Assembly (NCBI GenBank): GCA_963799485.1
Contig: CAWCXJ010000003.1
Coordinates: 1-52,597 of the forward strand
Origin: an uncultured Trueperaceae bacterium
GTDB lineage: Bacteria; Deinococcota; Deinococci; Deinococcales; Trueperaceae
Reading direction: 5' to 3'
Length of the DNA stretch: 52,597 nt
Shown: positions 6,802 to 47,319 of the stretch, piece after piece
Position numbering within the stretch: the first letter of the stretch is position 1
Layout: the number at the start of each line of letters is the position of its first letter
The notes under the pieces: model-generated
What the model was told of the DNA's origin: nothing
Databases searched by the model: none
What the model saw: the letters and a program-made list of their open reading frames with translations, nothing else
Position numbers and translations under genes: made by a program

Positions 6802-8606
6802 GTCACCAATCCCTGTGTACGCGCTTCGCGGAGCGCCATGCCAACACACCAACCGATGTCATCGCCCCGGCTCGTGATATTTTCCGGCGTGCCCCATTCG
6901 CGCTGTGAAAACTTTACGTGTTCGCCCGTGGCAAACATTAGCGAGGGGCCGACCACATCGCCCCAGGTCTTTTTGTTTGCCTCAAAATACCTTTCGCCAT
7001 CGCTACCTTTTACGACAGGACGCGTGACGAGAACGCGGGTGTAACCCCCGTGCCGCGCCTTGAAGCGGAACTTATGAACCTGCCCCTCGGCATCTTTGCC
7101 ATCTACAAACCGTTCGGCGATGGGGCAGTGGGTGTTCCAGCCAAGCGTATCGTTCCAGTTTTCTTCGTCAATGCAGCGGTACTGAAGGGGTTGCGGTTGC
7201 ACCCCGGCGTACTGCGTGTTTGCCAACTTGCGCTGAAAATCGTCAGTGGCAAACATCCCCAGGCCATAAACGCCGACCTCCATTAAAAGGGTTTGTAACA
7301 GCTTGACATATACTAGAGGCTGGTATCCGTCCTCTTTCGATGCGCCCGGCGTCATGCCCAAAACGTTGTACGCCCAGGTATAGGATTTTAGCGTTTGACC
7401 GTTTACGTCCTGTTCGACGTCGGCAATCTCATTCTCGAGCATGATGGTCATACGCGCTACCCGGTCATCGCACTGCTTTACCCGGTCGGCTGCTTTGGCG
7501 GGCAGGATGCCTTTGATTTTGTCGCCCATCTCTTTGTGAAGCTTAGCTACTACCCGCTCGTAAATGGCGGGGTGCGCCTCGGCAATTCGGCCCTGCTGCC
7601 ACATATATTTCATGATGCACACGAACGGGTGAATCACCCGGTCGGTGTAGCCCATCAGGTCGCCTCTACCCAGCAGCGCTTGAAGCAGCTCGAGCCGCAA
7701 GACAACCTCGAGGCTGTCCTCGGCTATCGTCGCAAAGTCTTTAGCCCCCGAACGCAACATCTCGAAGAACCTGTAGGCCATCCCGCCGACCGTGCCCGTC
7801 AACAGGTTCAGTTCCTTGTCGTTGCGAATGGTAGCGAGACCGTTTGCCGTACTGTTGAGCGCCTCCATACCCTTCCAGTTTGAGCGCGGTCGCCACAGGC
7901 TGATAGTGACGCCCCAGATGGTCGCGGTATCCCAAATCAGGTTTTTACGCAGCTGAATGAACAGCCGCTTCGATTCAGTGATGTGCCAGTCTGTACCAAA
8001 AACCCGCCCTATCAGCTCCAACATGAACAGGTACGCGCCCACACTCCGGCCTACCTGCTGCATCGTCGCGGCGGTGACGGCGTTGTTGACCGCACCCAGG
8101 TTGCCCGCGTGCAACGTCTTCACGTCGGGCCACGCCTCTTTCGCGTTCGCGGCGACCATTTTCCCGACAGCCGTCAGCAGCAGAAGCAGCGCGCCGGAAA
8201 ACGCGGTGAGGCTGAACTTTTCGTCCGGCACGAGCGACGACCCCACCAGAGCCGGGACGGGCGGCTTCTCGGCCTCGGCTTTCAGCTCGAGTCCCCGCTC
8301 CCAGTAGGCCGTTTCGCGCTCGATGATGGCGACTTTTTCAGCCACGGTGTTGCGAAAACTCGCCAGCGCCTGTGTCTCGGCGTCTTTCGCCTGCGCCAGA
8401 GCGGCCTCGGCCTGTACCACGGTCGCGTAGGCAGCCTTGAGCGCGTCGAAGGCGACCTGTTCACTCACCGCTTCCGTACCGCCCTGTTCGGGCCACGGCA
8501 CACCGGCAGCCAGCGCCTTTTTACGAGCGGCCTGTTGCGGCGCGTTGGCAGCGTCGATCCGGGCTTTTCCGCCCGTCCATTCCTGATTTAGTTCGGCTTC
8601 GGTCAT
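6792..8606 (-). CDS. 604-aa protein, coiled-coil N-terminus plus predicted all-helical domain
   Basis: AGGAG RBS before ATG 8606; weak similarity to the C-terminal half of 14128-16959. Confidence 0.7.
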   Translation of the reverse strand: MTEAELNQEWTGGKARIDAANAPQQAARKKALAAGVPWPEQGGTEAVSEQVAFDALKAAYATVVQAEAALAQAKDAETQALASFRNTVAEKVAIIERETAYWERGLELKAEAEKPPVPALVGSSLVPDEKFSLTAFSGALLLLLTAVGKMVAANAKEAWPDVKTLHAGNLGAVNNAVTAATMQQVGRSVGAYLFMLELIGRVFGTDWHITESKRLFIQLRKNLIWDTATIWGVTISLWRPRSNWKGMEALNSTANGLATIRNDKELNLLTGTVGGMAYRFFEMLRSGAKDFATIAEDSLEVVLRLELLQALLGRGDLMGYTDRVIHPFVCIMKYMWQQGRIAEAHPAIYERVVAKLHKEMGDKIKGILPAKAADRVKQCDDRVARMTIMLENEIADVEQDVNGQTLKSYTWAYNVLGMTPGASKEDGYQPLVYVKLLQTLLMEVGVYGLGMFATDDFQRKLANTQYAGVQPQPLQYRCIDEENWNDTLGWNTHCPIAERFVDGKDAEGQVHKFRFKARHGGYTRVLVTRPVVKGSDGERYFEANKKTWGDVVGPSLMFATGEHVKFSQREWGTPENITSRGDDIGWCVGMALREARTQGLVTWS

Positions 8607-8615
8607 GTTACTCCT

Positions 8616-8640
8616 AAAAAAAATCCGCCCGGAGGCGGCG
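8616..8640 (-). terminator. Intrinsic terminator-like hairpin abutting RBS
   Basis: CCGCC-TCCG-GGCGG-A-T8 then AGGAG. Confidence 0.65.
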
Positions 8641-8658
8641 AGAGTCTTGAAAAAGGGC

Positions 8659-8697
8659 TTGACAACTCGTGATGATTCCTGTATACTCAATTCATCA
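8659..8697 (+). promoter_or_regulatory. Consensus sigma70 promoter with overlapping inverted repeat (operator candidate)
   Basis: TTGACA 8659-8664, 17 nt, TATACT 8682-8687; TGATGA 8670-8675 / TCATCA 8692-8697. Confidence 0.85.
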
Positions 8698-8740
8698 AAG
8701 GGCAGAGGCCGAAGGGCAGCCCGAACAGAGGGGGAATGAA

Positions 8741-9019
8741 ATGACTCAGCAGTACGAAACCTACAAAAACGAGGTTCGCAAAGAATTCCTCAAAATGGGC
8801 GAGCAGTACAGGACGGCCCATAAAGAACTCGAGGCGAGAAAGTGGGAACTCGTCGCCGAAGTCAACGCGAGAGAAGGTCGCACCGGTACCAGCAATGAAA
8901 CGCTGGCCAAGGTCATGGAAAGGCTTGAACCAGGCCAGCGCAAACTCGAGGCGCTGGAGCGGCGGATCGCCGCCTTTGAAAACAAGCACTACCACGAACT
9001 CGAGGTGCTCTCATGGTAG
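8741..9019 (+). CDS. Small helical protein, anti-defence candidate
   Basis: GAGGGG RBS; first gene after the strong promoter. Confidence 0.7.
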   Translation: MTQQYETYKNEVRKEFLKMGEQYRTAHKELEARKWELVAEVNAREGRTGTSNETLAKVMERLEPGQRKLEALERRIAAFENKHYHELEVLSW

Positions 9020-9294
9020 GGCTTACCACGAACGAAAATATAGAAGGAGAGTTCGAGCCGATTTCCCCTGAGCGGGTTTTCGAGGTTCTAGAATCCGGGA
9101 GTTACAGTAGCTTCACCTTTACTGAAAGCTGGGGGCACTACCGCATGACGCTCTCGCTGCTTGAAAACGAAAAGTTTTGCTTTTCAGGCCACCACAATTT
9201 TATTTGCGAGCGCCTCCATGCGCTCGAGTTTTTGAAAAAAGAAGGTATTGATTCGAGTATTTCTCACCTGTTCGACTGCTCCGACTATCCCTAG
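9013..9294 (+). CDS. Small acidic protein, anti-defence candidate
   Basis: GAGGTG RBS, overlaps previous gene, Glu/Ser/Phe-rich, lower GC. Confidence 0.65.
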   Translation: MVGLTTNENIEGEFEPISPERVFEVLESGSYSSFTFTESWGHYRMTLSLLENEKFCFSGHHNFICERLHALEFLKKEGIDSSISHLFDCSDYP

Positions 9295-9364
9295 TGCGCC
9301 CGCATCCGCCACAGCTAGACACCCTCAGCCCTGCCCCGGCTTTATAGGGGCAGAAAGAGAAACC

Positions 9365-9649
9365 ATGAAAGAAATCGTTGTTACTCGTCATCCCGCTTTA
9401 GTCGAGTTACTCCGCGAGCGCGGAGTAGTGCAGGGCACGCCCGAAGTCATCAGCCACGCGACACCGGAGGCCGTATCCGGCGCAAGGGTCATCGGGGTTT
9501 TGCCGCTGCACCTGGCGGCACTGGCAGCCGAAGTCGTTAGCGTCAGCGTGAACGTACCCGCTGAACTGCGCGGGTCTGAACTTAGCCTCGAGCAGCTCCG
9601 GGAGTACGCCGGAGAACCCGAGACTTACCGGGTGGAGCGGATTGATTGA
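9365..9649 (+). CDS. csx16: Csx16 (Cas_VVA1548)-like protein, putative cyclic-oligoadenylate ring nuclease
   Basis: Family motifs VTRHP, VIGVLPLHLAA, VPAELRGSELSLEQL; 94 aa. Confidence 0.8.
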   Translation: MKEIVVTRHPALVELLRERGVVQGTPEVISHATPEAVSGARVIGVLPLHLAALAAEVVSVSVNVPAELRGSELSLEQLREYAGEPETYRVERID

Positions 9650-9884
9650 GACTCGATGCTCGTAGTGGCAGCTACGGGCGACCGGACGGGTATGATGCGC
9701 CCCCGGCCTGAAAACACCGCTCACGAAACGGCGACCGCGAAAGCCAGTAGCCGAGCAGCACTGCACGGTGAGCGCGTACCAGTACCGCATCTGGGTAGTA
9801 GAAGGGGACAGCCGGCCTGTAGCGGCCCCCTCACCGAGAAACCATCTACAGGAATTGCTGAGACTGCCATTAGCGACCTTGTAC

Positions 9885-9917
9885 CCCGCACGTCCTCAGC
9901 GCGTGCGGGTTTTTTTG
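9885..9917 (+). terminator. Intrinsic terminator-like hairpin inside the accessory operon
   Basis: CCCGCACG-N9-CGTGCGGG-T7 then GGAGAG RBS. Confidence 0.7.
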
Positions 9918-9924
9918 GAGAGAA

Positions 9925-10293
9925 ATGAAAGAAAAACAGTTCAGACGCATTACCGGGTTCAGGATGCGGCGTGCGAACGTCGTCGGCTACCTGGTCAGGC
10001 CGACCTCTCTTCACAAGCTCTGGAAACTTTTGTGTTCCTACGACTATGCGCCCAGTAGCGCGGCCTCGAGGGTAGAGCGCAGACAGCTCGAGGATGAGCT
10101 GTACGAGTTCGGGCGCTGGAAAAAACGCGCCTATAGCGAGATAGAGGCGCACTCAGGGCGGAGCATCTGGAGCTTCACGCTAGCAGACTTTGCCGCTGCC
10201 GACATCTCGATAGAACGGCGGGCAGGAGATCTCGCGGCACGTATCCTCGACTACGCCCGCCGCGCAGACGTGCGCTCGACGAACCATGCCTAG
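9925..10293 (+). CDS. Hypothetical protein
   Basis: GGAGAG RBS; overlaps next gene. Confidence 0.6.
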   Translation: MKEKQFRRITGFRMRRANVVGYLVRPTSLHKLWKLLCSYDYAPSSAASRVERRQLEDELYEFGRWKKRAYSEIEAHSGRSIWSFTLADFAAADISIERRAGDLAARILDYARRADVRSTNHA

Positions 10294-10528
10294 CGGCGGC
10301 GCACGGCCCGGAACGGGCGGGGAACGTGTTGGAGCGGGGCGCAAACCGAAAGGCAAGCGCCCCCTTGTTCTGTTTCAAGTGAAAACGGATGAGCGTGTCA
10401 AGGCGGCATTCGAGTTGGCCTACAAAGAAGCCAACGACGAGCTTACCAAAGGCGAGTTTCTGGAACTCGTTTTGAGAAACTCGCCTGTTCTAAAAAAGGC
10501 TTTTATTACACTCTCCGAGCCTTATTAA
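10286..10528 (+). CDS. Small DNA-binding regulator (GGxRxGAGR plus ribbon-helix-helix-like), Aca-like position
   Basis: GGARPGTGGERVGAGRKPK then a beta-strand and two helices; last gene of operon. Confidence 0.65.
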   Translation: MPSGGARPGTGGERVGAGRKPKGKRPLVLFQVKTDERVKAAFELAYKEANDELTKGEFLELVLRNSPVLKKAFITLSEPY

Positions 10529-11162
10529 TAGATTCCTCTAACGACAACTTACGGCTTCTATAAAAATGCGCGAAACTTTTGTAGTGCAATCCAAGTTTCG
10601 CGCACAGCTCCGGCATCGCGTACGATTCTGATTCAAATTCAATACGGACACTACAGCGGCGGTTATTTTGTTGCTGAGCAATTGTCGCCCATCTGACGTT
10701 ACCCGGTTCATAATTTCCGTTGTTGTCAATTCGGTCAAGCGAATGTTTGGAACTAGGTCGTTTTCCTACATCAGCGAAAAAAGCCTCAAATGAATTGGCC
10801 CACCTTTCACAAACTTTAATACCCCTATCTGCATATCTTTCGCTAAAGCGGTAATAAGGGGTACACCGTTGCTTCATTGCTATCCAAGCATTGTGTTCCG
10901 GCGTTCGGTTCAAACCATGAGAAGTAGCCCTTTCTTTTCTTAACCGCTGGTTTTCGCAACCACAACTTATTGTGTGACCACAAGTAAAATTGTTACTGTC
11001 CAACTCGACTAAATTTCCACAAGCACAGATGCAAAGCCACCACATGCAGCGGCTGGCATGATTCGTCCGTTTGCCAAGTAGCGTTAAAACAGTAAGTTTG
11101 CCGAAAGTTTTGCCGGTCAAGTCTTTGACTTTACCTAAACTTTTAGGTGGGGTATATTCCAT
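10506..11162 (-). CDS. HNH-type homing endonuclease 1
   Basis: DLTGKTFGKLTV, WLCICACG, SCGC, RYADRGIKVCERW, SLDRIDNNGNYEPGNVRWAT; AT-rich; GGGAGG RBS. Confidence 0.9.
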   Translation of the reverse strand: MEYTPPKSLGKVKDLTGKTFGKLTVLTLLGKRTNHASRCMWWLCICACGNLVELDSNNFTCGHTISCGCENQRLRKERATSHGLNRTPEHNAWIAMKQRCTPYYRFSERYADRGIKVCERWANSFEAFFADVGKRPSSKHSLDRIDNNGNYEPGNVRWATIAQQQNNRRCSVRIEFESESYAMPELCAKLGLHYKSFAHFYRSRKLSLEESINKARRV

Positions 11163-11230
11163 TTGCAGACCTCCCAGTCTGTCGCGCCACGGCAGTGATT
11201 GCGTCACTGAGTCCGTGGCTTAATTATAAC
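11130..11230. promoter_or_regulatory. Convergent promoters around two hairpins (HNH1 leader)
   Basis: Minus TATAAT 11223-11228; plus TTTACC-17-TATATT; hairpins 11166-11181 and 11186-11219. Confidence 0.55.
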
Positions 11231-11332
11231 ATTTTTAGCTTGGGACGACTGGCATAGCGAGACCGGCGGCACACAGGGAGAGTTTCTGGCGCTGGTTCTC
11301 TCCGAGTCCGAGCGCGTCAAGGGTTGGGGCGT

Positions 11333-11551
11333 CTAGGGCGCGAGAACGACCGGGAACGGGTAGCGCGCAAACACCGTCGGCCATAGCCGCTGGGCCTCGG
11401 CTATCCCCGACTCAGCCGGAAACGCCCCCAAAAATACGAACGTCGAGTGGGAGCCCAGCCTTCTGTCCATACTCCTGTCGTGCCACGCCGCCACAGTCCA
11501 GCCCTCTATGACCTGTACCCGCGCCCTCCCCTCCACCTCGGCGTCGGGCAA
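11333..11551 (-). CDS. Small phage protein or fragment
   Basis: GWTVAAWHDRSMDRR.GSHSTF; no clear RBS; in frame with 11597-11722 past its stop. Confidence 0.45.
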   Translation of the reverse strand: MPDAEVEGRARVQVIEGWTVAAWHDRSMDRRLGSHSTFVFLGAFPAESGIAEAQRLWPTVFARYPFPVVLAP

Positions 11552-11596
11552 AAAGCCGCCGTGAAGCGGGCGCGGCGATTTGTCGGGACGGGGCGG

Positions 11597-11722
11597 TTAA
11601 ATTCTCAGCAGTCCTCGTGGCCTCACGGCGATACGCACGACCGGCGCGGCCTGGGGCAGCGTTACGGCGACGGTATCGGTGTTGGCGTCCTCCCAGAGTT
11701 TGTTCAGTTCTGTGTCTGTCAT
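11597..11722 (-). pseudogene. 41-aa orphan N-terminus homologous to the start of 6792-8606
   Basis: MTDTELNKLW... vs MTEAELNQEW...; 10/26 identical, ungapped; GGAGG RBS. Confidence 0.6.
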
Positions 11723-11782
11723 AGTGCCTCCAAAAAAACATCCCGCGCGAGCGGGCTAGAGGGCGTCTGTTTTCAGGGGGTG

Positions 11783-12130
11783 TCAATCAACCCCCGGCGC
11801 AATGCCTTTACCTGTCAGGTAGCTGTACGCGCCTTCAAAGCCCCCCGGCGTGTCGTTTGTCGGGTTCGTCAGAAAGCCGTGCCCGGTCATGAGGATGTCG
11901 AGTAATGCGTTGTAGGCTTTAAGCTCGCCGACAAGTTCACTGGTCGGGTCTAAAAACTGCTGACGCCACGACAGGGTTTTGACTTTTACGAGGTACGCTT
12001 CCGTCCGCGCAATCGTCTCTTTTTGCAGCGCGTCTACAAGCACGCGGGTGTTCACACTCTTAAATGCGGGGTTGATCGGCACAACGCCTCCTAAAATGTC
12101 CGTAATGAGCTGTGGGCTGAGTTTGGTCAT
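11783..12130 (-). CDS. Hypothetical tail-region protein
   Basis: GAGG RBS; co-oriented with tail genes. Confidence 0.6.
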   Translation of the reverse strand: MTKLSPQLITDILGGVVPINPAFKSVNTRVLVDALQKETIARTEAYLVKVKTLSWRQQFLDPTSELVGELKAYNALLDILMTGHGFLTNPTNDTPGGFEGAYSYLTGKGIAPGVD

Positions 12131-12137
12131 AGCGTCC

Positions 12138-12779
12138 TCATGCGGGCACATCGAAGGTGACCGTCAACGTAACCGTTTTAGTCGGGTCGCCCTGATACGA
12201 GAGCGTCCGGTGGTTGTTGTTGTCGCCCGCGTAGCCGTTGTTATCGGGAGGCAGCCAAAAGAGACACAGGTTGCTAATCGCCGCCGAGCCGAGCGCCCGC
12301 ACCTCTTGCGCCTGTGCGGTTACGTCCACATCATACTGACTGCCAAGCGTCCAGCTTCCCGGCGGCGTCCAGGTGTACAGCGCCGTCTTGACCCGCCCAC
12401 CGCCGACATTCGGCATGGTCAACTCCGACTTACTGCTAATCCGCGTGGGGTTTAACGCCCGTTCAAACGCCCAGCGTGACGGGTGCGGCGACGATGCCCC
12501 GCCGTCCGGGTAGATATGCGCCACAGCCGACACGATGGTGGCGTTACCCGGCAGGCTCCGCCCGTTTTCAGCTGTGAGGTAGATAAAGCTGCGGTAATTA
12601 AAGCGTGTGCTGCTGATTTGCCGCACGTAGAGATAGTTCGTTATCGCCAGACCGCCCGGACTGTCCGCGCCGTCGTAGGCATACTGCGTATCGAGCCGGT
12701 CGCCGGGGGCGAATTGCAAAGTGTCGCGCACCGTGCCGCCCGAGAGCGCCACCGCCGACGCTTTGATAGGGCGCGGCAT
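12138..12779 (-). CDS. Minor tail protein (DNRLRE/CBM-like beta fold)
   Basis: YRSFI...LPGNATIVSA...YDVDVTAQAQE pattern; TAATG coupling. Confidence 0.55.
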   Translation of the reverse strand: MPRPIKASAVALSGGTVRDTLQFAPGDRLDTQYAYDGADSPGGLAITNYLYVRQISSTRFNYRSFIYLTAENGRSLPGNATIVSAVAHIYPDGGASSPHPSRWAFERALNPTRISSKSELTMPNVGGGRVKTALYTWTPPGSWTLGSQYDVDVTAQAQEVRALGSAAISNLCLFWLPPDNNGYAGDNNNHRTLSYQGDPTKTVTLTVTFDVPA

Positions 12780-13645
12780 TAGCTGATGCGCTGCAAGGTC
12801 GCGCCGCCCCACGCACCAGCCGCTAGACCCGACACGGTTGCGCGTAAAATGCTGTTCGCTGCCATCGTCAGCGGGAACGACGCCGTGACCCACGACGCCC
12901 CGGCAGGGAGCGCGGCATACTGCCAGACGACATTAGAACCGGTCACACCGCCGTAGTAACTCGGCGCGGCGTACACCCCGGCAACGCCTGTAGGGTAGCG
13001 GTAGGCGCGGTTAGCGTCGAAGTCAAAGACCATCTCGCCGTAATTGGTAACGCCCTTCGCTTCCCACACGGCGACAGTGCCGCTCTGTCCTTGCGCAACC
13101 CCTGTCACGGTACAAAGCCACCACACCGCGTTGATCCCTGGGTTGAAGTTGAAGAAAATATCACCCTGTACACCTGAAACGGTCGGCTTGGCGGTCGCGT
13201 ACCCGCGAAACGTCCGGGGGGCCGGGAAAAACCCGAAGTTCTTGGTTGTGCCGTCGGCGTAGGTAAAAATGAGGTTCCCTACATTGTCGAGCGACACCGC
13301 GCTCAGTCCTGCCGTGTTAAGGCCGCTAACGGTGCTCGTCAGGGCGTTGAGGTCGTCACGCAACCCAGTCTGGTTCGCCTCGAGGCCCGAAAGCGACGCG
13401 TCGAAGTTGTCTACTTGCTCACGCGTCGCGTCGAACTGCCCGCGCAATACCCCGAGTTCGGCGGGATTCACAGTGTTGACCATCAAGGCAAAGTTTGCGT
13501 CAACATAGGCGAGGGCTTCATTTTGTGTACCGGGAGGAATTTTCGAGCCGCCCGAAAAAGGAATCTGCGGGATAAGCGTCACGGTTCCGGCGACGATGCG
13601 AATGATTACATCGTCGATCTGCGCCCTCAGCGCGAGACTAGGCAT
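12779..13645 (-). CDS. Tail fibre/minor tail protein
   Basis: Coiled coil, then LIFTYADGT and GDIFFN..WWLCTVTG fibre-like motifs. Confidence 0.65.
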   Translation of the reverse strand: MPSLALRAQIDDVIIRIVAGTVTLIPQIPFSGGSKIPPGTQNEALAYVDANFALMVNTVNPAELGVLRGQFDATREQVDNFDASLSGLEANQTGLRDDLNALTSTVSGLNTAGLSAVSLDNVGNLIFTYADGTTKNFGFFPAPRTFRGYATAKPTVSGVQGDIFFNFNPGINAVWWLCTVTGVAQGQSGTVAVWEAKGVTNYGEMVFDFDANRAYRYPTGVAGVYAAPSYYGGVTGSNVVWQYAALPAGASWVTASFPLTMAANSILRATVSGLAAGAWGGATLQRIS

Positions 13646-14120
13646 CGTCGATCACCACTTCAACCTCGTTTTCACGCGTCAAGCTGACCTCCATTAAAAA
13701 GGCAAAGTCGGCCCCGCTACCGGGCCGGTCGGTATCGTTTTGGTCGGTCAAGAGCAGCGTCCCGTAAAGTTTTTGACTCGGCAGCTCGAGGTCGCCGTTT
13801 GTAAAGGTCTCGGCAATGGGCTCGAGCGCCAACGACTCTTTTGCTGCGCTCAGGTTCCAGGTGATCGTTTCCTCGCCAAAAAAAGACAAGGTGATATACG
13901 CCGGGGTCGGCCCGTCGGCGGCAAAAACCCCGATATGCCGCTCGCTGGTAAGTTCGCCAATAACCGGGCCGTTGAGGTACTCCCGGATTTGCATCCGAGC
14001 GTTGTCGGAAGGCAGCCAGCCCACCGCCAGCGGACTGCCTGTGTCGGCGTCTTCGGCGGTCAAGACAATCACCTCATCGCGCCCTTGCTTTAAGGGCAGG
14101 TAGTTTGCCAGTTGTGACAT
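13638..14120 (-). CDS. Baseplate/tail adaptor (LtfC/BppU-like)
   Basis: LKQG...ARMQIRE pattern; GGAGG RBS. Confidence 0.55.
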   Translation of the reverse strand: MSQLANYLPLKQGRDEVIVLTAEDADTGSPLAVGWLPSDNARMQIREYLNGPVIGELTSERHIGVFAADGPTPAYITLSFFGEETITWNLSAAKESLALEPIAETFTNGDLELPSQKLYGTLLLTDQNDTDRPGSGADFAFLMEVSLTRENEVEVVIDDA

Positions 14121-14127
14121 AAGCCTC

Positions 14128-16959
14128 CTAGATATTCTTCGGGTCGACGCCGAAACGCCGCGAGGTAATAAAGTCGATCACCTGCCGCTTGCACCAGTTA
14201 TCATCATTTTTCGTAACGGTCTGCCCGCGCAGGGGCGTGTAGTTCAGATAGATTTTGGCGATTTCGTAATAGCGCTTCAGGTTTTCCTTGTCCGGCGTCG
14301 GGTCGAACGCCACGAGTTCAAAGCCCTGCGTCTCACGAAAACGGTTTTGCAGCGAAGCAAGTGAGTCCGCCTGGTCTACCGGCGTCACCGCCGCTTGCGT
14401 CGTCACGTACTCGTAAAACTTGGTGCTCGGTTGGGTGAGCTTGAGGCCAGCGGGCCACGGTGAGCTGTAGGGGATGTCGGAACCGTCCGTAAACTTGTTG
14501 CCCGGCCCGGCAATGCGGGTTGAGAGCCTGGTGTTGCTGATCCAGCCGACTTGAGAGAAGTTGTTGGCGAGCGCCTCGGCCAGGCGTCTCATACCCGGTG
14601 CACCTAAAAGCGTCATGACGTTGATACAGTGATACAGGTCAGCCGAGTAGCGCGCAAACCAGCCGCCGTTGGTATAGGCCGCCGTCTGTGACTTACTACG
14701 CCACGACATCTGCGGTTTGGCGAGGTGATGTCCGAACATCGCCGTTTCCTTACCGTTGGGTGTAGGGGCGTAATTGATTGAAAGTTCAATCCACGAAAGC
14801 CGTTTACGGTAAGAGTTTTCCCAAAACACCGCGCGCGGGCTTGCCGGGCCTTCACGTAGCCGCGCCCACTCCCAGCCCATAAAGTCCAGGTAAAGGTGCT
14901 GAATGAAGTCATGGGCGATGTCCTCCTTCCAGTCGATCATCCCGTCCCGGAAGCGGCCCAAGCCCTTGAAGTCGGGTTCGACCGAGTTATTCGCCCGGTA
15001 GCGGTAAAACGCCAGGTATTTGTAAAACCAGTCGTAACCCCAGTCGCACAGCGAGGCAACCGACTCTTTACCCGCACCACGGTTGTAATTCCGGTTCTGG
15101 TCTAAGACCATCAGGAGCGCCACATACCCCGACAGGCGCGGCGTCAGGTCGTGCGGGTTACAGTCGGCTCCCGAGGCGGTCTTGCCCTCCTGGGTCGCGG
15201 CGGTCGTCTTGCGGACAAACAGCGGTTTCGGCATCGTCAGCCACGAGGTCTGAAAGGTCGTGCCGTCGTCGTTTTCGACCGTGACGAGTTTGTCGTAGTA
15301 CGCCTCCTGCTCGAGCGCCAGCAAGTACCGTCCTTTACCTTCGGGGTAATACTTGGACGGCGGCGGCGTGCCCTGCCCGAGCGCACGCATGGCGTTGATA
15401 TTGAGTTCAATGCGATCTGCCATGATGCCGATAAGTTCGGGCGCTTTCGTCTGGGTGTAGAGCGCCAGCAAAAAGTTCATGACAGCGGTATTAGGTCGCC
15501 CCGCCGTGTTTGCGTTCGCGTCGTTCCAGTAGGGGTTCGACGCGCCGTGAACGTAGACCTTGCCGGTGTCCAGAAAGCCCAGCGCCCCGTCGATGGCCCG
15601 CCGGTACAGGTCGCTTTGCCCGTTGACGAGCGCCGATTCCCGAAAGTTCGGGTCATAGCTGTAGCTGTTGACGGTGACGCTACCCGTGACCGTGACCGTC
15701 GCCTGCGCCGTGACCGTCCCGTTGCTGTTCGTCGCCTTGAGGATGTACGTCGTGTCGCTGTAGGGCGTCCGTTTGACGCTGCCCGATGTGACCGGCGAGA
15801 GGGCTACCCCGTCGCCGTCGGTGAGGCTCGTAGCCCCCGCCACGTTCCACGCGAGGGTGATTTCACCCCCCGCTGTGACGTTCGCAGGTAGGGCCGTAAA
15901 GCTGTTGATGACGGGCGTCCCGGCGCTCCCGGCAGGGCTGAGCGTGATGACACTTTCAAAAGTGTTCCCGCCGACTGCCTGCGCCCGGATGATGGCGGTA
16001 CTCGTGGCGCTGATGCTGCCCGGTGGGGTGTAGATGACGTTTAGGCCGTCCAGCGTCAACGTACCCGGCCCGGTGAGCGTCCAGACCGGGTTGGCTTCGC
16101 TGTTCTCGAGCGTCGCTCTGAACGTAGTCGCCGCGTCGCCCGCCCGGATAAACGCCGTTGCGGGTTGCACGGTAATCGTCGGGTGACGGTACGTGCCGAC
16201 CAAGATGCTTGCCGCGTCCTGCGCTTCGCTGGTGAGCAAGGTACGGGCAACGAGGGCAAACCCGACACTGCGGGCCTCTAAAAACTTCTCAGCGCCCCTC
16301 GGCGTCCGGTTGCCCGCTGTGCCCTGCAAGCCCCGGTACGCGCCGCCCAAGGCCATACAGAGCTTGCCTGTCCAGCTGTAGGTGTTCAGCGTCACGGTGA
16401 CGGCGGTGAGGCTGCCCAGGTGCATCAGGGTGAGCTGTTTGCTGTCCGGGCTGACTTTGAGCCAGAAACTATGCACGCCGCCTAAGCCGAGCCCTGCCGG
16501 GAGTTTCGCCGTCACCCCGCCCGACACACCTTTGTCGAACGCATTTAGGACAAGTGAGCGCTGCCCTACCGGGTCGGCGGAGAGGGTGAGCTTGGCGTAG
16601 GCGTCCAGGTCGTCCTCAGCGCCGACGCTAAAGAGCGCGAGCGAACTGTCCCCTGTACCCGGCCCCGCGTCGATAAGCGTGAACACCACGTCGAACGCTT
16701 TGGAGGCGTCCGTACCCGTCAGGTAGGGTGTGCGGATAAGGGTGCCGCCGAACGTGGTCAGCGTCCCGTCGGCGCTGGTCGTACCGGTGCCGAAGTTCAA
16801 AAGTTGCCCACTCGTATAGGGCTGGTCGTTTTGGTTAGGTGTTGGTAAATCGGCGCGGTAGACTGCAACCGTGCCTATCGGCAACTCAAGAGAAGGCCCC
16901 GTCAACCGGGACGGGGCGACATACTGCGCGAAATACGCGGCTTGACTGTCTAAAGACAT
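14128..16959 (-). CDS. Large tail protein: beta-sandwich/Ig-like domains plus C-terminal helical domain
   Basis: PVINSFTA...TLAWNV..TTYILKATN Ig-like repeat; GGAGG RBS. Confidence 0.7.
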   Translation of the reverse strand: MSLDSQAAYFAQYVAPSRLTGPSLELPIGTVAVYRADLPTPNQNDQPYTSGQLLNFGTGTTSADGTLTTFGGTLIRTPYLTGTDASKAFDVVFTLIDAGPGTGDSSLALFSVGAEDDLDAYAKLTLSADPVGQRSLVLNAFDKGVSGGVTAKLPAGLGLGGVHSFWLKVSPDSKQLTLMHLGSLTAVTVTLNTYSWTGKLCMALGGAYRGLQGTAGNRTPRGAEKFLEARSVGFALVARTLLTSEAQDAASILVGTYRHPTITVQPATAFIRAGDAATTFRATLENSEANPVWTLTGPGTLTLDGLNVIYTPPGSISATSTAIIRAQAVGGNTFESVITLSPAGSAGTPVINSFTALPANVTAGGEITLAWNVAGATSLTDGDGVALSPVTSGSVKRTPYSDTTYILKATNSNGTVTAQATVTVTGSVTVNSYSYDPNFRESALVNGQSDLYRRAIDGALGFLDTGKVYVHGASNPYWNDANANTAGRPNTAVMNFLLALYTQTKAPELIGIMADRIELNINAMRALGQGTPPPSKYYPEGKGRYLLALEQEAYYDKLVTVENDDGTTFQTSWLTMPKPLFVRKTTAATQEGKTASGADCNPHDLTPRLSGYVALLMVLDQNRNYNRGAGKESVASLCDWGYDWFYKYLAFYRYRANNSVEPDFKGLGRFRDGMIDWKEDIAHDFIQHLYLDFMGWEWARLREGPASPRAVFWENSYRKRLSWIELSINYAPTPNGKETAMFGHHLAKPQMSWRSKSQTAAYTNGGWFARYSADLYHCINVMTLLGAPGMRRLAEALANNFSQVGWISNTRLSTRIAGPGNKFTDGSDIPYSSPWPAGLKLTQPSTKFYEYVTTQAAVTPVDQADSLASLQNRFRETQGFELVAFDPTPDKENLKRYYEIAKIYLNYTPLRGQTVTKNDDNWCKRQVIDFITSRRFGVDPKNI

Positions 16960-16969
16960 AAACCTCCCC

Positions 16970-18958
16970 TCATGTCACGATTCCCGTCTGCACGCTCCCC
17001 ACGAGCGCCGTCCCTGCCGAAAGCCCCTGCACGGTGCCGTCTGCGAGTTTGGTGCCGAACAGGTTTAAGCGTCCCGACCCCGACAGGCCGGGGTTTCTAA
17101 ACACCGCTGTCTGGTCTAGCGTCGGATTTTCTAGCGTAAAGTTGCCGTCGGCGTCGCACTTGACCGAGAGGTGCATGACGCCCGCCTGGATACTCAGCGA
17201 GGCGTCGGTAGCGCTCACCGTTTGTGAGGTCGTCCCCTTACTGACACGTAAGCGCAGACCGGACGTTGCCACGTAAATCTGCCAGAAGTCCCACTTATTG
17301 CTCTGGCTCGAGCCTGAAAAAAGGATACTCAGCAAGGGCAGTTTATCCACGTCCCAGAACGCCCACGACACGGTGTAGTCACTCGCCATATTGAAGGCGT
17401 TGTCTACCGTGACGATAGAGGGGCCGTAGGGTGCGATGTTCGAGCCGTCGCCGACAACAGCGTCCCAACCGTTTGAGAAGCGGGCAAGGCCGTTTAAGAC
17501 TAAATCGCCCGCAGCGCCCGCGCTCCCGGTGTTGGCTTTCATGGTGTTTAGAGACTTGTTTACCGGGTCGTACAGCCGCCATTCGTGCGTGGTGTTCGGC
17601 GGCAAAGCGGGCAGTTCACTAAATGTGCGGAGGTCTAAGACGGTGGTGCTGCGGAGCCCTGAAACGGTTGTGGCGGTCAGCGTGACGCTGTGGTCGCCGA
17701 GCGTCAGCCCTTCTTCAGCGAGGAGCGTCAGTTTGAATATGTCGGTGGTGAAGTCCGAATCGACGACCTCGACGAGACTCGAGGCGCGTAGGGAGATATT
17801 GTCCGGCGTCGCGGTGAGCTTGATTGCTTCAGTCAGCCCGCCCGTGCGAAGGACGGTCACGAGGATTTCTTTAGGCGTGTCGATGACGATTTGGGCGCTT
17901 GCGGGTTTGAGTAGCTCGAGGCCGGGTTTGACCGGCGTCGGGGTAAAACTGCCGATGGCGGAGAGGTGCCGGTACCACGCGCCTAGTCCGTCGTTGAGTT
18001 CAGGCCACGTCAGCACCCGCTGTGTCAGAAAGGGTACACCGGACGCACCCAGACGCGGCGCACCGGGCATGAACGCGCCCTCTATCCCGCCGACGCCGCT
18101 GATATAGCCGAGACTCAGGTCGCGTTCGCTAAACGCCGGAATGTTGCCGACCGCGACCGTCCCGTGTTCCACAAGCCCGTCGGCGGCGTAGCTGTAAAAC
18201 CGCGCTTGCCGGTTCTCCTGCCACGTGAGCGCAAACAGCCGCAACACCTGCGTTGTCCCGAGTAGTGAGGTCTGCTGCCCAAACGCGTGCGCGTAGAACG
18301 TCCCGAGGCTGTAGAAAATCCCGGCAGAGGCCGCGTTCGCCTGTCCCTGCGCGCTAATCGTCGCGCCTACCGAGGCGACGCTGTAGAGCGCCGGTTCGTT
18401 GCAAAACACGCCGACGCAAAGCGAGCCTTCGGGCATCCGGGCCGGGGTCAGGAACGCGTGCAGGGCGCTACTGTCAACCGTGTTGACAATCGGTGCGGCG
18501 GCGCTCGACTTGAGCGCATACGGCACTTTGCCCGTCACCCGGTCGAGTAGGGGGTGCTGCCAGCGCGGGCCGGTCGGGTAGACGGTCGCCTCTAAAGTGT
18601 TCCGGGTCGCGCTTTGCACCGCGCCGCGTGTCACCGGCAGCATCAGCCCGTCGGGTCGCCACACTTCAGCGGCGTAGAGCAGAGCGTCCTCTATCCCCTC
18701 AACCCGGCGTTTGACGCTACGCCCTACCCGGTCGTCTATCACAAGGTTGAAATCTTTGCTCGCGGGTTCCGGGTCGCTAAACGCCGACGCCGGAAGCCAT
18801 GTACCGGGGCCAAAGCCGACCATCGAAGTCTCGAGGCTCCCCACTGTGTACTCGGGTTCGTCCATCGCCACGTTGTAGACCGTGCCGCCGACGGTGACAA
18901 TGGCGTGGTCTTCAATATCGGGTGGGCGGTAGACGCGGAGTTTGCTGAGGTCAATCAT
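16970..18958 (-). CDS. Tail tip protein with lectin/LamG-like modules
   Basis: Second gene after the tape measure; beta-rich modules. Confidence 0.6.
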   Translation of the reverse strand: MIDLSKLRVYRPPDIEDHAIVTVGGTVYNVAMDEPEYTVGSLETSMVGFGPGTWLPASAFSDPEPASKDFNLVIDDRVGRSVKRRVEGIEDALLYAAEVWRPDGLMLPVTRGAVQSATRNTLEATVYPTGPRWQHPLLDRVTGKVPYALKSSAAAPIVNTVDSSALHAFLTPARMPEGSLCVGVFCNEPALYSVASVGATISAQGQANAASAGIFYSLGTFYAHAFGQQTSLLGTTQVLRLFALTWQENRQARFYSYAADGLVEHGTVAVGNIPAFSERDLSLGYISGVGGIEGAFMPGAPRLGASGVPFLTQRVLTWPELNDGLGAWYRHLSAIGSFTPTPVKPGLELLKPASAQIVIDTPKEILVTVLRTGGLTEAIKLTATPDNISLRASSLVEVVDSDFTTDIFKLTLLAEEGLTLGDHSVTLTATTVSGLRSTTVLDLRTFSELPALPPNTTHEWRLYDPVNKSLNTMKANTGSAGAAGDLVLNGLARFSNGWDAVVGDGSNIAPYGPSIVTVDNAFNMASDYTVSWAFWDVDKLPLLSILFSGSSQSNKWDFWQIYVATSGLRLRVSKGTTSQTVSATDASLSIQAGVMHLSVKCDADGNFTLENPTLDQTAVFRNPGLSGSGRLNLFGTKLADGTVQGLSAGTALVGSVQTGIVT

Positions 18959-20595
18959 AAACGACCAATCGTGGTGCGTATTTCGCTTTGCCGCGTCGTG
19001 GTGTCGATGGCCAAACGGATACGGTCAGCTAGGGCCGCGTCACCCTCACGGCTAGGTGAGCCGAGGTCTACCACCGTACTAATGCCATTCGTGCGGTCAA
19101 ACGCATAGCGGTATTCAGCGGCGTCGGTCATGCCAGTCTCGAGTTTGACTTTAGGCAGCGGCGGGGCGTAGTAGCCGACCCGATTACGGTCTTGGGCGCG
19201 GCGCAAAATGAGCTGCACGGGTTCTTGTGCAGGGGTGCGGAATTCGGCGATAGCGGCAGCGTCTAGGAGAGAGGTATTAAGGGTCAAAATCTTAAAGTCT
19301 TTGATAATGAAATTTGTCGGTGCATCGGTGGAGTTGACAAAGAATCTTACTAAATTCATGGTATAAGTACGCCCATTAGCCGCTAAAAATGGCTTCACAG
19401 GAGGAAATTTTAGCTCTATTGGAGTAAAACTGCCCTCAGTGTAATTTGGTTGGAAAACCGCTTTTTCATCCCCAGTGTAACGTTCCTGGCCCTGATCATC
19501 TAAAAAACCGAACCTGGCAGCTATGAAAGGTCGTGCCATCCCATAACTGAGACGATAATTAAAACTTAGTCCGCAAATATTTTTAGATGAGGCCAAAGGA
19601 AAAATCTGGAATCCCGCAGAATTTTGGTTTTGGGTATAAGATCCGTTTGAAACGGTAAATCCTCCGTAAATATCTACTCTGTCAATCGCTTCAGGGACAA
19701 GCAAAGAGACTCCAACATATGTGCGCGCTATTACTTTGCTGAACAGGTTGTGCGCTCCCTTATCAGGAATCGAAAGGTACGTCAGTGTTGACCATTGCAG
19801 GTTTTGGGTCAACGAATAATCAGTTTGGCCTGACTCAATTCGTAACCCGTCACTCGGCTCATTCCCGATAACCCACAGCACCGCCGTCACCGTATCGTCT
19901 GCTTTAATCGGCAGGTCGGTATAGTCCTCGGGGTAATACGGCACGTCAAGTGTGCCCGTCAGCTCTTTGAAAAAGACAAAGCCGCGCCCGTCAACGCCGT
20001 AGCTAATCGTGCGGCCCGCGTCAGCGACGCTTTGCCCTAACAGGTTCAGCGCTTCGCCTAACTGGATACCGGGCTGTTCAAAGCCGCCCTCGAGCGTGGT
20101 CGCCGTCTGAGGGAAGTCGATTTCATTAAAGTTCAGCGCCGGGTGACGCAAGCGCCTTACAAGGTCTTGCGCGATTAAGGCCGGGTCTTGTGCGGGATAG
20201 CTTACGGCGTCGGTCACAGTACCGTCTAGTAGGTATTCGGCGTCAGCTACATAATCCCGGACGCCGCCCGGTAGCTTTTTCGCTGCCCAGCCCTGCGTAA
20301 TCGCGCCGTAAAACACATCTTTCCAGCCGTCGCCGTCGTTTAGCCGAAACACGATGATTTCACCGCCGGTACACGCCACGAGATGAGGGAACCCGGTAAA
20401 AGTGAGCGTCTTGACCGCGCCACCGGGCGCAACCGCACACGCTACCTCACGGTCGAGGCCGTTGTACTTGTACGCCGAAAACTGGTTGAGGACTTGCGTC
20501 CCGTTCTGCGAGAGGATTACCAGGTGAAAGTCCTGTATGTCCTGTGAGGGCGGCTGTGGCAACACCGCCCGGTTGAGTGCAGCAAGTTGGGTCAT
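18955..20595 (-). CDS. Baseplate hub/tail tip protein
   Basis: Follows the tape measure (ATGA overlap); YGVDGRGFVFF hub-like motif. Confidence 0.65.
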   Translation of the reverse strand: MTQLAALNRAVLPQPPSQDIQDFHLVILSQNGTQVLNQFSAYKYNGLDREVACAVAPGGAVKTLTFTGFPHLVACTGGEIIVFRLNDGDGWKDVFYGAITQGWAAKKLPGGVRDYVADAEYLLDGTVTDAVSYPAQDPALIAQDLVRRLRHPALNFNEIDFPQTATTLEGGFEQPGIQLGEALNLLGQSVADAGRTISYGVDGRGFVFFKELTGTLDVPYYPEDYTDLPIKADDTVTAVLWVIGNEPSDGLRIESGQTDYSLTQNLQWSTLTYLSIPDKGAHNLFSKVIARTYVGVSLLVPEAIDRVDIYGGFTVSNGSYTQNQNSAGFQIFPLASSKNICGLSFNYRLSYGMARPFIAARFGFLDDQGQERYTGDEKAVFQPNYTEGSFTPIELKFPPVKPFLAANGRTYTMNLVRFFVNSTDAPTNFIIKDFKILTLNTSLLDAAAIAEFRTPAQEPVQLILRRAQDRNRVGYYAPPLPKVKLETGMTDAAEYRYAFDRTNGISTVVDLGSPSREGDAALADRIRLAIDTTTRQSEIRTTIGRL

Positions 20596-23500
20596 ATTTT
20601 AGTTAGTTTCTGAGGATTGCGAGACTCATAACTATTTGTCCCCTTTAGTAGTTTGTCGGCAGCGGCGTCTATCTTGTTTGCGGCCCGCCAGTTCACATCG
20701 GCAGCACGGGCGATAAGTTCAGCGCCGTGCCCGAAGGTGTCGAAGTAAGCTCCCATCTTGGTAAACCAGTCCGGGGTAGCGGAGCCGAGACTACGCGCCT
20801 TGAGCTTGATGCTCTGCCCTAAGTTTTCAAAGGTCGGTTCGTTTGCGGGTGTGCTAAAGCCGAGCCGGTCAGCCGCCCCGCGTAAGGGCGCAAGGATTTG
20901 CTCGAGCTTGCCGAAGATGCCGGGTAGTTTGTCGGCGATCTGCTGCACGCCTTGTGCCGCGCCGTTTACGTCGCCTTTGGTGATATCTGCCGTGAGGTCG
21001 GTTAAGAGTGGCCCCAGCGACTGCGCTAAGACCTGTTTGCTGAGCTGGTCGAAAAGCCCGTCAAAGGTCGTGTCGAAAAGTCCCTCGAGGGTCTGCTGAA
21101 AGTCGAGCGCCTCACCCGACTTGATCGCCGTCTTGAGCCCTTGGGAGATACCGCCCGAAACACTCTGCTCGAGGGCGAGTCCGGTCGTTTTGGCAAAGTC
21201 TAAAATCTCTTGCTGATATTCTGTCAGCCCTTGCTTGAGCTTGACTTTTGAGCCCAAGAGCTGCCCGAGTATCCCGGTGAGGTTGCCGTCACTCCGCCCG
21301 ATAATGGCGTACCCGGTCAGGGCGCGGCCTGAAATGATATCGAAGGTGTCGCGTTCAAACTCGAGTAACGCTTTTTTGTTTGCGGCGTAAGCTTCTTTTT
21401 CCTCTTTCGGCGCTTTGGATTTGCGCTCACCGTACTTTTTGATGAAAGCGCGTTGTTTGCGGTCGGCCTCGGTGAGCGCCTTTAAGGTGCGCTCAGTGTC
21501 GGTCTGTACGCCCTGCTCAAAGCTGTTTGAGAGGGCACTAAAGGCTTTTTGCTGCGTTTTGATAGCGCTGTTGATGCTACCGACGACGCCCGTCTTGTAG
21601 CCCTCTACGCCACGCTGGACGCTCTTTAAGAGGCCACCCAAAGGGCCAACGGAGCGGACGTTCCCGCTCCGGTACGAAGTGTCGGGTTCAACCTGGGCAA
21701 ACGACGTGCCGTACCCGAAGGGCCGCGCTTCGATGTCTTGCATCAGGCCGTAAGTGTCGAAGTTGCCGAACTCCGAAGACATGCCGCCTAGCGCACGTTC
21801 GTCTATGGTGGCGTTTAGGGGTGCAAAGAATCCCGCCGCACCGGGTCTGCTACCGCCTCCCCCGCCGCTACCTGAATTTTTGAAACTGGGCAGGCCGCTG
21901 CCAAGTTTGCCGACGGTCGAGGCCGCGACAAGCTTGTTCATCGCGGTACGAATATCGTTAGTGACGCTACCAATTTTATAGACGGTCTGACCGCCCTGGG
22001 TGATAAGCATGGTGTCTTGCTTGTTGAAAAACGACGCGAGGGCGTTGGATAAATCGGTGCCGCTACGGTCCAACGTAGCAATAAGGCCGTCAGGTTTACC
22101 GTGAACGCCGTTTCTTTGCTCCTGCACTAAAAGCTCGTAAGTCTGCCGAATAACGGAGCGCAGCACTCCTTGCTGCGCTTCAAGCTGTGTTTTTTGCGCT
22201 TCAAACACGCCTTTTTGGGCGTTAGTAAGCGCAATGGCTTGAGCTTCCAAATCGCCCACTAACGAACCGCTATCCCCTGATGACGCGCCTCTAATGAGGT
22301 CAAAGGCAGCTCGTATTTTGTCAGCGGTCGTTTGTGCGCCGCTTTGGGCCGCGTCACCGGGCGCAACGATTGCCGCACCTACGGCGGGCGTGACAGCCTT
22401 CTCGCTTGCTATAGCCTGAGTCGTCAGTGCACCCGACCCCTCTTGCAGGGCCGACGCTTCGCTGTTGTAAAGGTCGAGAATCGACCTGCGAATCTGCGCT
22501 GTTTTTTCCGGGCCAAACAGATCTATAAGCTGCTGGTTTAACCCTGCAATAACCTGACGCGGGGCATCCCCGGCAGTTATAGCAGTTGTAGCGAGCTGCT
22601 GATTGCCCGCTTGCAACGCGACGGCCTGCTCGCTGTAAAGGTTGAGGATAGCCGCGCGGATTTCTGCGGACTTTTCCGGCCCGAAGAAATCAATAAGCTG
22701 CTGATTTAGAGCGTCAACACCCTCGCGGGTCGCTGTCGCCCCGTTAGCCGCTGCTGTGCCTAGCGTCTGGTCGGACGCTTCGAGTTCAGCAAGCAACGTC
22801 GTGGTACTGAGGCCCAGAGCTTCAGCGGCCTGAGCAGCGCCTTCAGGTAGCACGCCGAAGACTTGGTAGTAAGCAAACAAAGCATCTTTGATACCAGCTA
22901 GCTGCTCACCCGTAAGGGAGCCTAGAATCTCATCGTTGCCCGAAAGGATGCCCTCGTAAAGCTCTTGCTGACTAATCCCCATTGCCTTAGCAATGTCGCC
23001 CGTATCTTCAAGGATTTTTGCGATTTCGTAGCCCAGCGCCTGCCTGTAGTTACCCAGCTCGGTTGAGAGCCCCGTTTTTTCGTCAATCAAAAACTGACGG
23101 CTGCGCTGAAGCGCCTCACGCTGATTCTGGGTCAGTTCGGGGTTGAGTAACGCGTTGTCAATTTGCGCGAGTTCGCCGTTGATTTCGTTATTACGCTTGG
23201 CAATGTCAGCCACAGCATCTTCGTAGTCTTGGTAGGCATCTAACAGCTCAACTTTAAGCTGGGCAAAGGCAACAGCACCTTGCCCCTTTTTGCCTTTGTA
23301 TTCGTCGGAGTCCTTAGCGTAATCAATCTTGGCGTCTAGCAGGGTGTCTTGCGATTTGGCAAAACTCTTTTCGTTGGCCTCGTTGATGTCGTTAAGAAAG
23401 CCGAAGGTCTCGCCCAGCCTCCGGTTGACCTCTTCAATACCTTCGATATAATCGTCAAAGGCTTCTTCGTTAAAGGTTTCTTTACCCTGATAGTCAATTT

Positions 23501-26492: not shown

Positions 26493-26557
26493 AAAGCACC
26501 GCCTCTCGTGTGGCAAAAAAAGAACCACCCGTAAAGGCGGTGTGCTAGATTTCTGTT

Positions 26558-47178: not shown

Positions 47179-47319
47179 AGGTATCTCCACAATCTGGGCA
47201 AATCCCAAGCCCCACCGTTTTAAGTCCCTTGCACGTCTTGCACCTACTTCTGCGCTCAACCCAGAGCAGCCCCACAACCAGCCCCAGAGCGCTCAGTGAA
47301 CCGACCACAGGCCACCAGG

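Follow-up and report, generated by a model that had tools for sequence, protein, structure and literature searches.

Csx16 was predicted to be a ring nuclease, with partial similarity to DUF1874, by Makarova et al. (2020), as related in the available part of a review (PMC8284326). In the accessible text of Hoikkala et al. (2025, PMC12409355), purified Csx16 fully degraded cA4, and neither cA3 nor cA6, when assayed at 1 and 10 µM enzyme in a buffer containing EDTA, and it cleared a 100-fold excess of cA4. According to the same text, Csx16 is found in 68 type III loci, and among 28,114 isolate phage genomes of the Millard database AcrIII-1 was present in 36, Csx20 in 4 and Csx16 in 2. AcrIII-1 (Crn2, DUF1874) is a viral cA4 ring nuclease and anti-CRISPR (Athukoralage et al. 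2020, cited in PMC12409355 and PMC13148439), and it is the only characterised ring-nuclease Acr named in the available portions of the two citing papers; the second of these, published in 2026 by the same laboratory as the first, states that viral ring nucleases act as anti-CRISPRs. Families directed against type III CRISPR accounted in 2024 for three of more than 80 Acr families (PMC11662646, available part). In the literature accessible to us, anti-CRISPR activity is demonstrated for AcrIII-1 but not for any Csx16, and we found there no report of a phage Csx16 tested as an anti-CRISPR.

Here we analyse a csx16-like gene carried by a phage. The window, that is, the whole stretch of DNA under analysis, comprises 52,597 bp and corresponds to the entire contig C3 of a 3.66-Mb assembly of 15 contigs; its termini do not overlap. 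The encoded protein resembles Csx16 (PF09652) in matching the family model over its full length, in its similar size and in possessing the same class of conserved polar residues. Unlike the cas-linked Csx16, the C3 copy resides in a phage cargo cassette, and the cmr genes of the assembly are on a different contig, C13. In this respect it is comparable to the two published phage copies, which belong to the same family and are located in phage genomes outside CRISPR loci (PMC12409355, available part). AcrIII-1 belongs to a separate sequence family, and the structural score between it and the C3 protein is too low to prove common descent. Csx20 and Crn1, the CARF-type stand-alone ring nucleases, likewise represent separate sequence families and gave no HMM match to the C3 protein.

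We consider it probable that the C3 protein is a dimeric, metal-independent cA4 ring nuclease with which the phage blunts type III CRISPR signalling. It is already known that Csx16 is a proven ring nuclease, that phages carry copies of it and that viral ring nucleases are an established anti-CRISPR strategy. What is new here is a clean cassette showing a natural presence/absence contrast in an assembly that also holds a type III-B system, together with evidence for near-exclusive carriage of the csx16-like clade by mobile elements.

Family assignment

The gene under study is the following.

9365..9649, + strand: csx16-like gene, 94 aa; PF09652 match; predicted dimeric cA4 ring nuclease

The ORF is intact and runs from an ATG at 9365 to a TGA at 9647-9649. 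Since relatives start at the equivalent aligned position, ATG 9365 is the likely start codon; an alternative, longer frame begins with a TTG at 9248. The Pfam model PF09652 (Cas_VVA1548/Csx16) matched the 94-aa protein with an E-value of 3.3e-19 and 69.3 bits (gathering cut-off 25), the match covering residues 5-90 of the protein and positions 2-90 of the 91 in the profile. A whole-genome profile search with PF09652 gave 68.4 bits at the same position. The NCBIfam model TIGR02620, which is of the type hypoth_equivalog_domain and narrower than PF09652, scored 31.5 bits, below its cut-off of 46.35 (E 1.6e-07, profile positions 2-91 of 93). The C3 protein differs in this from the Csx16 proteins that match TIGR02620, and its activity is a prediction; in the JGI annotation, the TIGR02620 name has been given to several relatives that are 55-60% identical to it. 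No PHROG family was found for the protein. A word-indexed search of 5.8 billion proteins yielded 287 relatives at E ≤ 1e-3, with PF09652 in 120 of 120 among the matches listed, and a profile search against 1.84 billion cluster representatives returned 2,289 at E ≤ 1e-3 and 1,238 at E ≤ 1e-10. Judged by these sequence comparisons, the assignment to the Csx16 family is real and far beyond chance.

A sequence-only reading of the window had reported a 94-aa protein with the motifs TRHP, VIGVLPLHLAA and PAELRGSELS, and had described Csx16 as a type III accessory that degrades cyclic oligoadenylate (cOA) and DUF1874 as a different family. The ORF is as described, and the motifs occupy residues 7-10, 42-52 and 65-74, respectively; the published activity of Csx16 is cA4-specific (PMC12409355, available part); and a Pfam scan at E ≤ 1 retrieved PF09652 alone for this protein, in accordance with its separation from DUF1874. 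That reading had also proposed a comparison with both family models, of which Cas_VVA1548 supports the assignment (69.3 against 25 bits) and TIGR02620 does not (31.5 against 46.35 bits).

Sequence and profile searches of the PDB revealed no Csx16 structure. They retrieved designed ankyrin-repeat proteins only (E down to 5e-8), where a local GxxPLHLAA-like motif is summed over the repeats; because the AlphaFold2 model of the C3 protein is beta-alpha-beta and not ankyrin, these matches were rejected as a coincidence of motif. The ankyrin likeness is confined to residues 36-71, a GxxPLHLAA...V.V.L-like stretch, and represents a trap for annotation from sequence only.

Conserved residues and predicted structure

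In an alignment of 32 relatives, 16 positions are invariant: T7, R8, H9, L12, L16, E18, G39, V42, G44, L46, P47, L50, R69, G70, E72 and Y88. A larger set of 141 distinct sequences, 38-68% identical to the C3 protein, was derived from 168 viral, genome and metagenome loci. R8, H9, G44 and P47 are kept in all 141, T7, L46, R69 and G70 in 140, E72 in 138 and Y88 in 134, the invariance of the TRH, GVLP and RGxE motifs being partly a matter of construction, because the loci were found using peptide patterns of these very motifs (the TRH pattern alone for the metagenome and genome sets). The C3 protein agrees with every position conserved at ≥ 90% among the 141 relatives. The available part of the review cited above (PMC8284326) gives His, Arg and acidic residues as those predicted for Csx16-type cleavage of cOA. 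Polar residues of this kind are present in the C3 protein, in T7-R8-H9, R69-G70-x-E72 and Y88, and the His, Arg and Glu among them are the candidate catalytic residues.

The AlphaFold2 model of the monomer, computed with the alignment of relatives, is confident (pLDDT 95.1, pTM 0.82) and displays five strands, at residues 3-6, 27-29, 41-44, 56-59 and 86-89, alternating with helices. Dimer modelling, which the sequence-only reading had put forward, predicts a homodimer with an ipSAE of 0.78 (3 runs) against 0.00 for the best of 3 controls; contact agreement was 100% and the partner pLDDT at least 89. In calibration, this mark was reached by 20 of 30 solved homomers and by 1 of 23 monomers. The interface is composed of residues 47-61 and the C-terminal strand 85-94. 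The protein is thereby predicted to be a dimer with a CARF-like Rossmann fold built on a 5-stranded sheet, in agreement with the published Csx16 models, which are 5-stranded Rossmann-like dimers (PMC12409355, available part). Foldseek searches of the model against the PDB and BFVD gave no match at E ≤ 0.001.

Proposed mode of action

Type III defence is the function most likely to be switched off by the csx16-like gene, because Csx16 enzymes have been shown to destroy the cA4 signal. According to the scheme that we favour, cA4, the second messenger made by Cas10 of type III complexes on sensing phage RNA, would be bound across the dimer face of the small homodimeric phage enzyme and cut to linear products with no involvement of metal. 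Removal of cA4 by the phage enzyme would keep the cA4-activated effectors silent, and since it is this removal that would silence them, the protein would be an enzymatic anti-type III CRISPR, functionally similar to AcrIII-1 but with the Csx16 fold. For the C3 copy, we infer the cleavage of cA4, the timing of expression and the effect on immunity. The idea of a stand-alone phage Csx16 as a candidate anti-type III CRISPR, advanced in the sequence-only reading, is partly supported, with the family, the phage location, the intact residues and the predicted dimer all speaking for it; from the sequence, such a role is credible. Should phage Csx16 work as predicted, it would join AcrIII-1 as the second enzymatic family able to disarm cA4 signalling, and a very widespread one.

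A different mode of action would be that of a cOA sponge or a very slow ring nuclease, which mainly sequesters cA4 as Csx15 does. Csx15, formerly predicted like Csx16 to be a ring nuclease, proved to be an effective sponge for cA4 but to work slowly as an enzyme (PMC13148439, available part), and the position of the C3 protein below the TIGR02620 cut-off means that it may differ from the assayed Csx16. The available text of the same paper also records that phage genomes were not seen to contain Csx15 and considers sponging a poor anti-CRISPR strategy when signals are amplified, and a 100-fold excess of cA4 was broken down in full by the assayed Csx16 (PMC12409355, available part). Given in addition that the candidate catalytic His, Arg and Glu are nearly invariant among the 141 relatives, we regard sequestration as unlikely and favour cleavage of cA4.

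The type III system of the host assembly

Positions 1-12,700 of contig C13 contain a combined type III-B and type I-B cas locus, which is cut by the contig end inside cmr4 and has the following order.

contig C13: cmr4 (partial), cmr3, cas10/cmr2, cmr1, cas4, cas3, cas5, cas7, cas8b, cas6

An IS256-type transposase fragment is situated just past cas6. Cas10 of this locus, a protein of 630 aa, keeps the GGDD cyclase motif, and cOA signalling in the host assembly is plausible on account of this intact motif. No other contig of the assembly was found to hold the missing part of cmr4. Neither Cmr6 nor Cas1 was detected in the assembly, and a k-mer scan revealed no CRISPR arrays in the assembly, retrieving one short tandem repeat on contig C2. 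In a complete genome of the same genus, cmr1-6 lie between housekeeping genes and are not accompanied by an adjacent effector; the Cas10 proteins of the two are 57% identical. On contig C6 (477981-478244), a 558-residue frame matched the Csm1 model only at its N-terminal positions 7-97, which belong to the HD region (E 2.5e-8), and may be an unrelated HD-domain protein.

The link between the phage and this host is based on their co-assembly, on similar composition (tetranucleotide r of 0.97 for contig C3, against 0.99-1.0 for chromosomal contigs) and on weak DNA matches of the phage in three genomes of the same family. Matches of 33-56 bp to six same-family genomes were considered as possible spacers and rejected, as no repeats flank them. 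The assembly offers a testable pair, a phage cassette that is missing from a sibling phage and a host type III-B Cas10 that is cyclase-competent.

With the models PF09455 and PF09002, a search of the assembly for cA4 effectors returned no match. PF09651, PF09659 and PF18145 gave none either, and these blanks say little because the control searches were silent too. It might be argued from the failure of the families tried to reveal a cA4 effector that the csx16-like protein degrades a different signal and counters another cyclic-nucleotide defence, such as CBASS, a Panoptes-type system or other CARF/SAVED systems. Some phages are known to encode enzymes that remove other cyclic nucleotides (PMC9117128, PMC12657218, available parts), and the relatives of the C3 protein occur in very diverse phages, including those with genomes of 190-260 kb. 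Against this reading, the assayed Csx16 remained cA4-specific even at 10 µM (PMC12409355, available part); the assembly holds a Cas10 competent for cyclase activity; and no CD-NTase (PF18144) was found in it by a search that was positive in 4 control genomes. In our view it is quite improbable that a signal other than cA4 is the target.

The csx16 cassette and its phage

Contig C3 is a tailed-phage genome of the temperate type, or a large part of one. PHROGs and Pfam searches identified an HK97-type capsid, a scaffold protein and the large terminase among the structural proteins, and a DnaB-type helicase, a replication initiator and RecT-like pieces among those of replication and recombination. 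The contig also encodes three DNA methyltransferases, three HNH endonucleases, an amidase and an S24 (LexA/CI-type) repressor-like protein; the 62 ORFs scanned included no integrase. A - strand ORF of 1,978 aa (20592-26528) and the three ORFs that follow it on the same strand (546-943 aa, 14128-20595) matched no PHROG or Pfam family and, by their position, presumably encode the tape measure and distal tail proteins. Two overlapping - strand ORFs, 46891-47277 and 46287-46946, match one and the same RecT-like PHROG at profile positions 300-375 and 413-549; in the region 46287-47277, either a frameshift appears to have divided a single recombinase gene or the sequence is in error.

Nearly all genes of the contig are on the - strand. 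The csx16-like gene belongs to a short group of + strand genes that runs antisense to the late genes; the features of this island and of its surroundings are listed below.

8659..8687, + strand: sigma-70-like promoter, TTGACA-17 nt-TATACT, 11 of 12 consensus positions (consensus match alone)
8741..9019, + strand: orfA, 92 aa, coiled-coil-like; ATG preceded by GGGGGA, downstream of the promoter
9013..9294, + strand: orfB, 93 aa; overlaps the end of orfA by 7 nt
9885..9916, + strand: strong intrinsic terminator, 9-bp stem with 7 G-C pairs followed by T7 (consensus match alone)
9925-10293 and 10286-10528, + strand: two small ORFs, no Pfam or PHROG families; adjacent cargo, membership of the csx16 unit not implied
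10506..11207, - strand: HNH endonuclease gene, phrog_374 (E 1.9e-60); convergent with the cassette and within the stretch absent from the sibling phage

The putative promoter is found within a gap of 135 nt that separates orfA from a divergent - strand ATG at 8606 with AGGAG upstream, and promoter-like sites in the region 8300-11300 number 4, compared with 1.1 +/- 1.1 in shuffled sequences. The csx16-like gene is the third and last ORF between promoter and terminator. Neither orfA nor orfB has a Pfam or PHROG family; searches of the Atlas gave sub-threshold matches only for orfA (best 0.79, to a cluster recorded as viral) and none for orfB. The 236 nt from the csx16-like stop codon to the terminator hairpin had no Rfam match in a scan of 8300-11300, and the stretch 9650-9925 folds no better than shuffled sequences (z -1.25). 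A linked aca-type HTH regulator is common with anti-CRISPRs but not obligatory; orfA, orfB and the two downstream ORFs had no Pfam or PHROG match, HTH families included. The earlier statement that the gene has no cas neighbours can be extended to all 52,597 bp: apart from the csx16-like gene, no cas family was identified on the contig (PHROGs for 62 ORFs, Pfam for 54 of these), the cas locus of the assembly being elsewhere, on contig C13. The same scans found no CARF or SAVED gene on contig C3.

Contig C2 of the same assembly contains a mosaic relative of the C3 phage. The two align collinearly, in reverse orientation, over C2 1880-58740 and C3 1-52597, in 24 pieces with 75-98% identity. Contig C2 measures 88 kb, of which ∼29 kb extend beyond the part aligned to the phage. 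The C3 segments 6829-8204 and 11793-19289 have counterparts in C2, whereas the intervening 8204-11793 has none, except for a piece of 80 bp. At the position of the cassette, C2 carries a different, 1.7-kb antisense set of small ORFs, for which we found no Pfam family and weak coiled-coil matches only; the sole cargo common to both phages is a homologue of ORF 10286-10528. The variable cargo region lies between the tail-fibre and lysis regions and is wholly different in C2 and C3.

The predicted promoter and terminator, together with the absence from the C2 sibling, mean that the csx16 unit is organised like a moron, with its cargo self-contained and located at a variable hot spot. As far as can be read from the two sequences, the cassette is a moron by both of the features that define one here, a promoter and terminator of its own, both predicted, and a presence/absence polymorphism between related phages. 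It would be a moron-like cargo with its own host-type promoter and terminator, and because the promoter is of the host type, host RNA polymerase could transcribe it early in infection, in the lysogen, or in both situations.

Distribution of relatives on mobile elements

In order to place the gene in a wider context, relatives were collected from several databases. All of these sets were seeded from the csx16-like protein of C3 and describe its clade, not the entirety of Csx16. In IMG/VR, a relative is encoded by 107 stretches, of which 80 loci were retained. Direct terminal repeats are present in at least 13 of the records with a relative and 18 are at least 90% complete according to CheckV; the sizes range from 31 to 261 kb. 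The Cas10 model TIGR02578, which is sensitive enough to pick up the Cmr2-type Cas10 of the host at E 1e-13, gave no match over the cut-off in 81 IMG/VR records, the one match of 17.8 bits being to a 125-residue frame with a stop. For 18 viral loci, the 144 ORFs lying no more than 3 kb from the gene were compared with PHROGs; the large terminase was identified in 5 loci, an integrase in 2 and primase or replication proteins in 5. A tblastn search of the C3 protein against 50,697 GenBank phage records returned no match at E ≤ 1e-3, and the C3 copy is consequently not a close relative of the gene of any deposited isolate phage. These numbers suggest that the isolate-phage counts (2 genomes) greatly understate the occurrence of the gene in uncultivated viruses, with at least 107 in IMG/VR and 2,289 cluster representatives for the family as a whole.

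Searches of representative genomes of 185,579 species, with a narrower pattern, yielded 7 loci. In the phylum of the host, the family was present in 7 of 364 genomes; the 127 remaining members of the family to which the host belongs all lack it. In no case among the six further positives of the phylum does the gene share a contig with Cas10. Around ten genome loci, 98 ORFs within 7 kb included no cas family beyond PF09652 (Pfam); the flanks instead encode a T4SS coupling protein, ParB, serine and tyrosine recombinases and HTH regulators, as well as a portal protein and the phage families GP88 and Pam3 gp33-like. Among unselected metagenome contigs there were 207 relatives. The 25 non-duplicate metagenome loci with a length of 5 kb or more contain 73 ORFs of at least 230 aa, none of which matched a cas family other than PF09652; a terminase was found in three of these loci and a portal protein in one.

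The search of plasmids gave a single match, a gene annotated as Csx16 in pDEIPR02 of Deinococcus proteolyticus, with no cas neighbours. In the region inspected (NC_015162.1, 11,900-34,500), this csx16 gene is stand-alone and forms part of a long one-directional run of small hypothetical genes, which also holds four SSB genes, a RES-domain gene, RNase HI and lytic transglycosylases; the plasmid is of the MPF_T type. The arrangement resembles the leading regions of conjugative plasmids, which are rich in anti-defence genes.

Taken together, the evidence is that the clade of the C3 protein is carried almost only by mobile elements. Alone of the 62 C3 proteins, the csx16-like protein recurs widely, in 87 of 88 loci, any other being found in at most 3 loci. 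Because the related loci share hardly any other C3 protein, the gene moves among unrelated elements. That it is a passenger with no part in counter-defence, whether a drifting captured cas accessory or a regulator of some cOA-responsive function of the phage, is very improbable, as its setting in variable cargo, where an HNH homing-type endonuclease gene is its neighbour and the operon partners (orfA and orfB) have no known function, is outweighed by an intact frame with every family-invariant residue, by a predicted promoter and terminator of its own, by the retention of the family in hundreds of unrelated mobile elements that have no other gene in common with the C3 phage, and by the lack of any CARF, SAVED or further cas gene in the 52.6-kb contig.

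The spread of the clade also invites a broader proposal, which we put forward tentatively and hold to be doubtful: that the stand-alone Csx16 clade of ∼94 aa is primarily a counter-defence family of mobile elements, and that the csx16 cassette is expressed in the lysogen against killing by type III-B. Considering that Csx16 proteins of ∼94 aa are spread over hundreds of unrelated phages (from 30-kb siphoviruses to genomes of more than 190 kb) and conjugative plasmids, the cas-linked copies could be the minority or even the derived state. For AcrIII-1/Crn2, such a status of the cas-linked copies has reportedly been argued in print. In a lysogen, the cassette would keep the type III-B system of the host from killing the cell on sensing prophage transcripts.

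The stand-alone form prevails in the clade, with the frame ending at most 12 codons past the match in 59 of 81 viral and 66 of 79 metagenomic loci; in a minority, 9 of 81 and 7 of 79, respectively, the C-terminus is extended by more than 40 codons. A search for longer relatives yielded 30 proteins of 166-263 aa, none of which contains Csx1 or another effector domain; two of them carry other domains, AAA_33 and pentapeptide. AAA_33 kinase-like domains near or fused to Csx16 were also noticed in metagenome contigs (L193:11523-12251, L198:4720-5445 and protein P0128). Tandem proteins of 261-300 aa with two Csx16 domains, possibly covalent pseudo-dimers, are encoded at L114 (G246:C3:72,306-73,088), L116 (G258:C1) and L118 (G270:C85) in plasmid-like or island contexts, one of them directly beside a T4SS coupling protein, and many Csx16 proteins of about 200 aa with two matching stretches are among the matches of the profile search. 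The longest form observed is a protein of 671 aa (L115:102-2114, - strand), in which Csx16 forms the N-terminal domain and is followed by ∼580 residues that match no Pfam family; the gene after it (L115:2130-2807, - strand) encodes an ankyrin-repeat protein, and ParB is encoded on the same contig.
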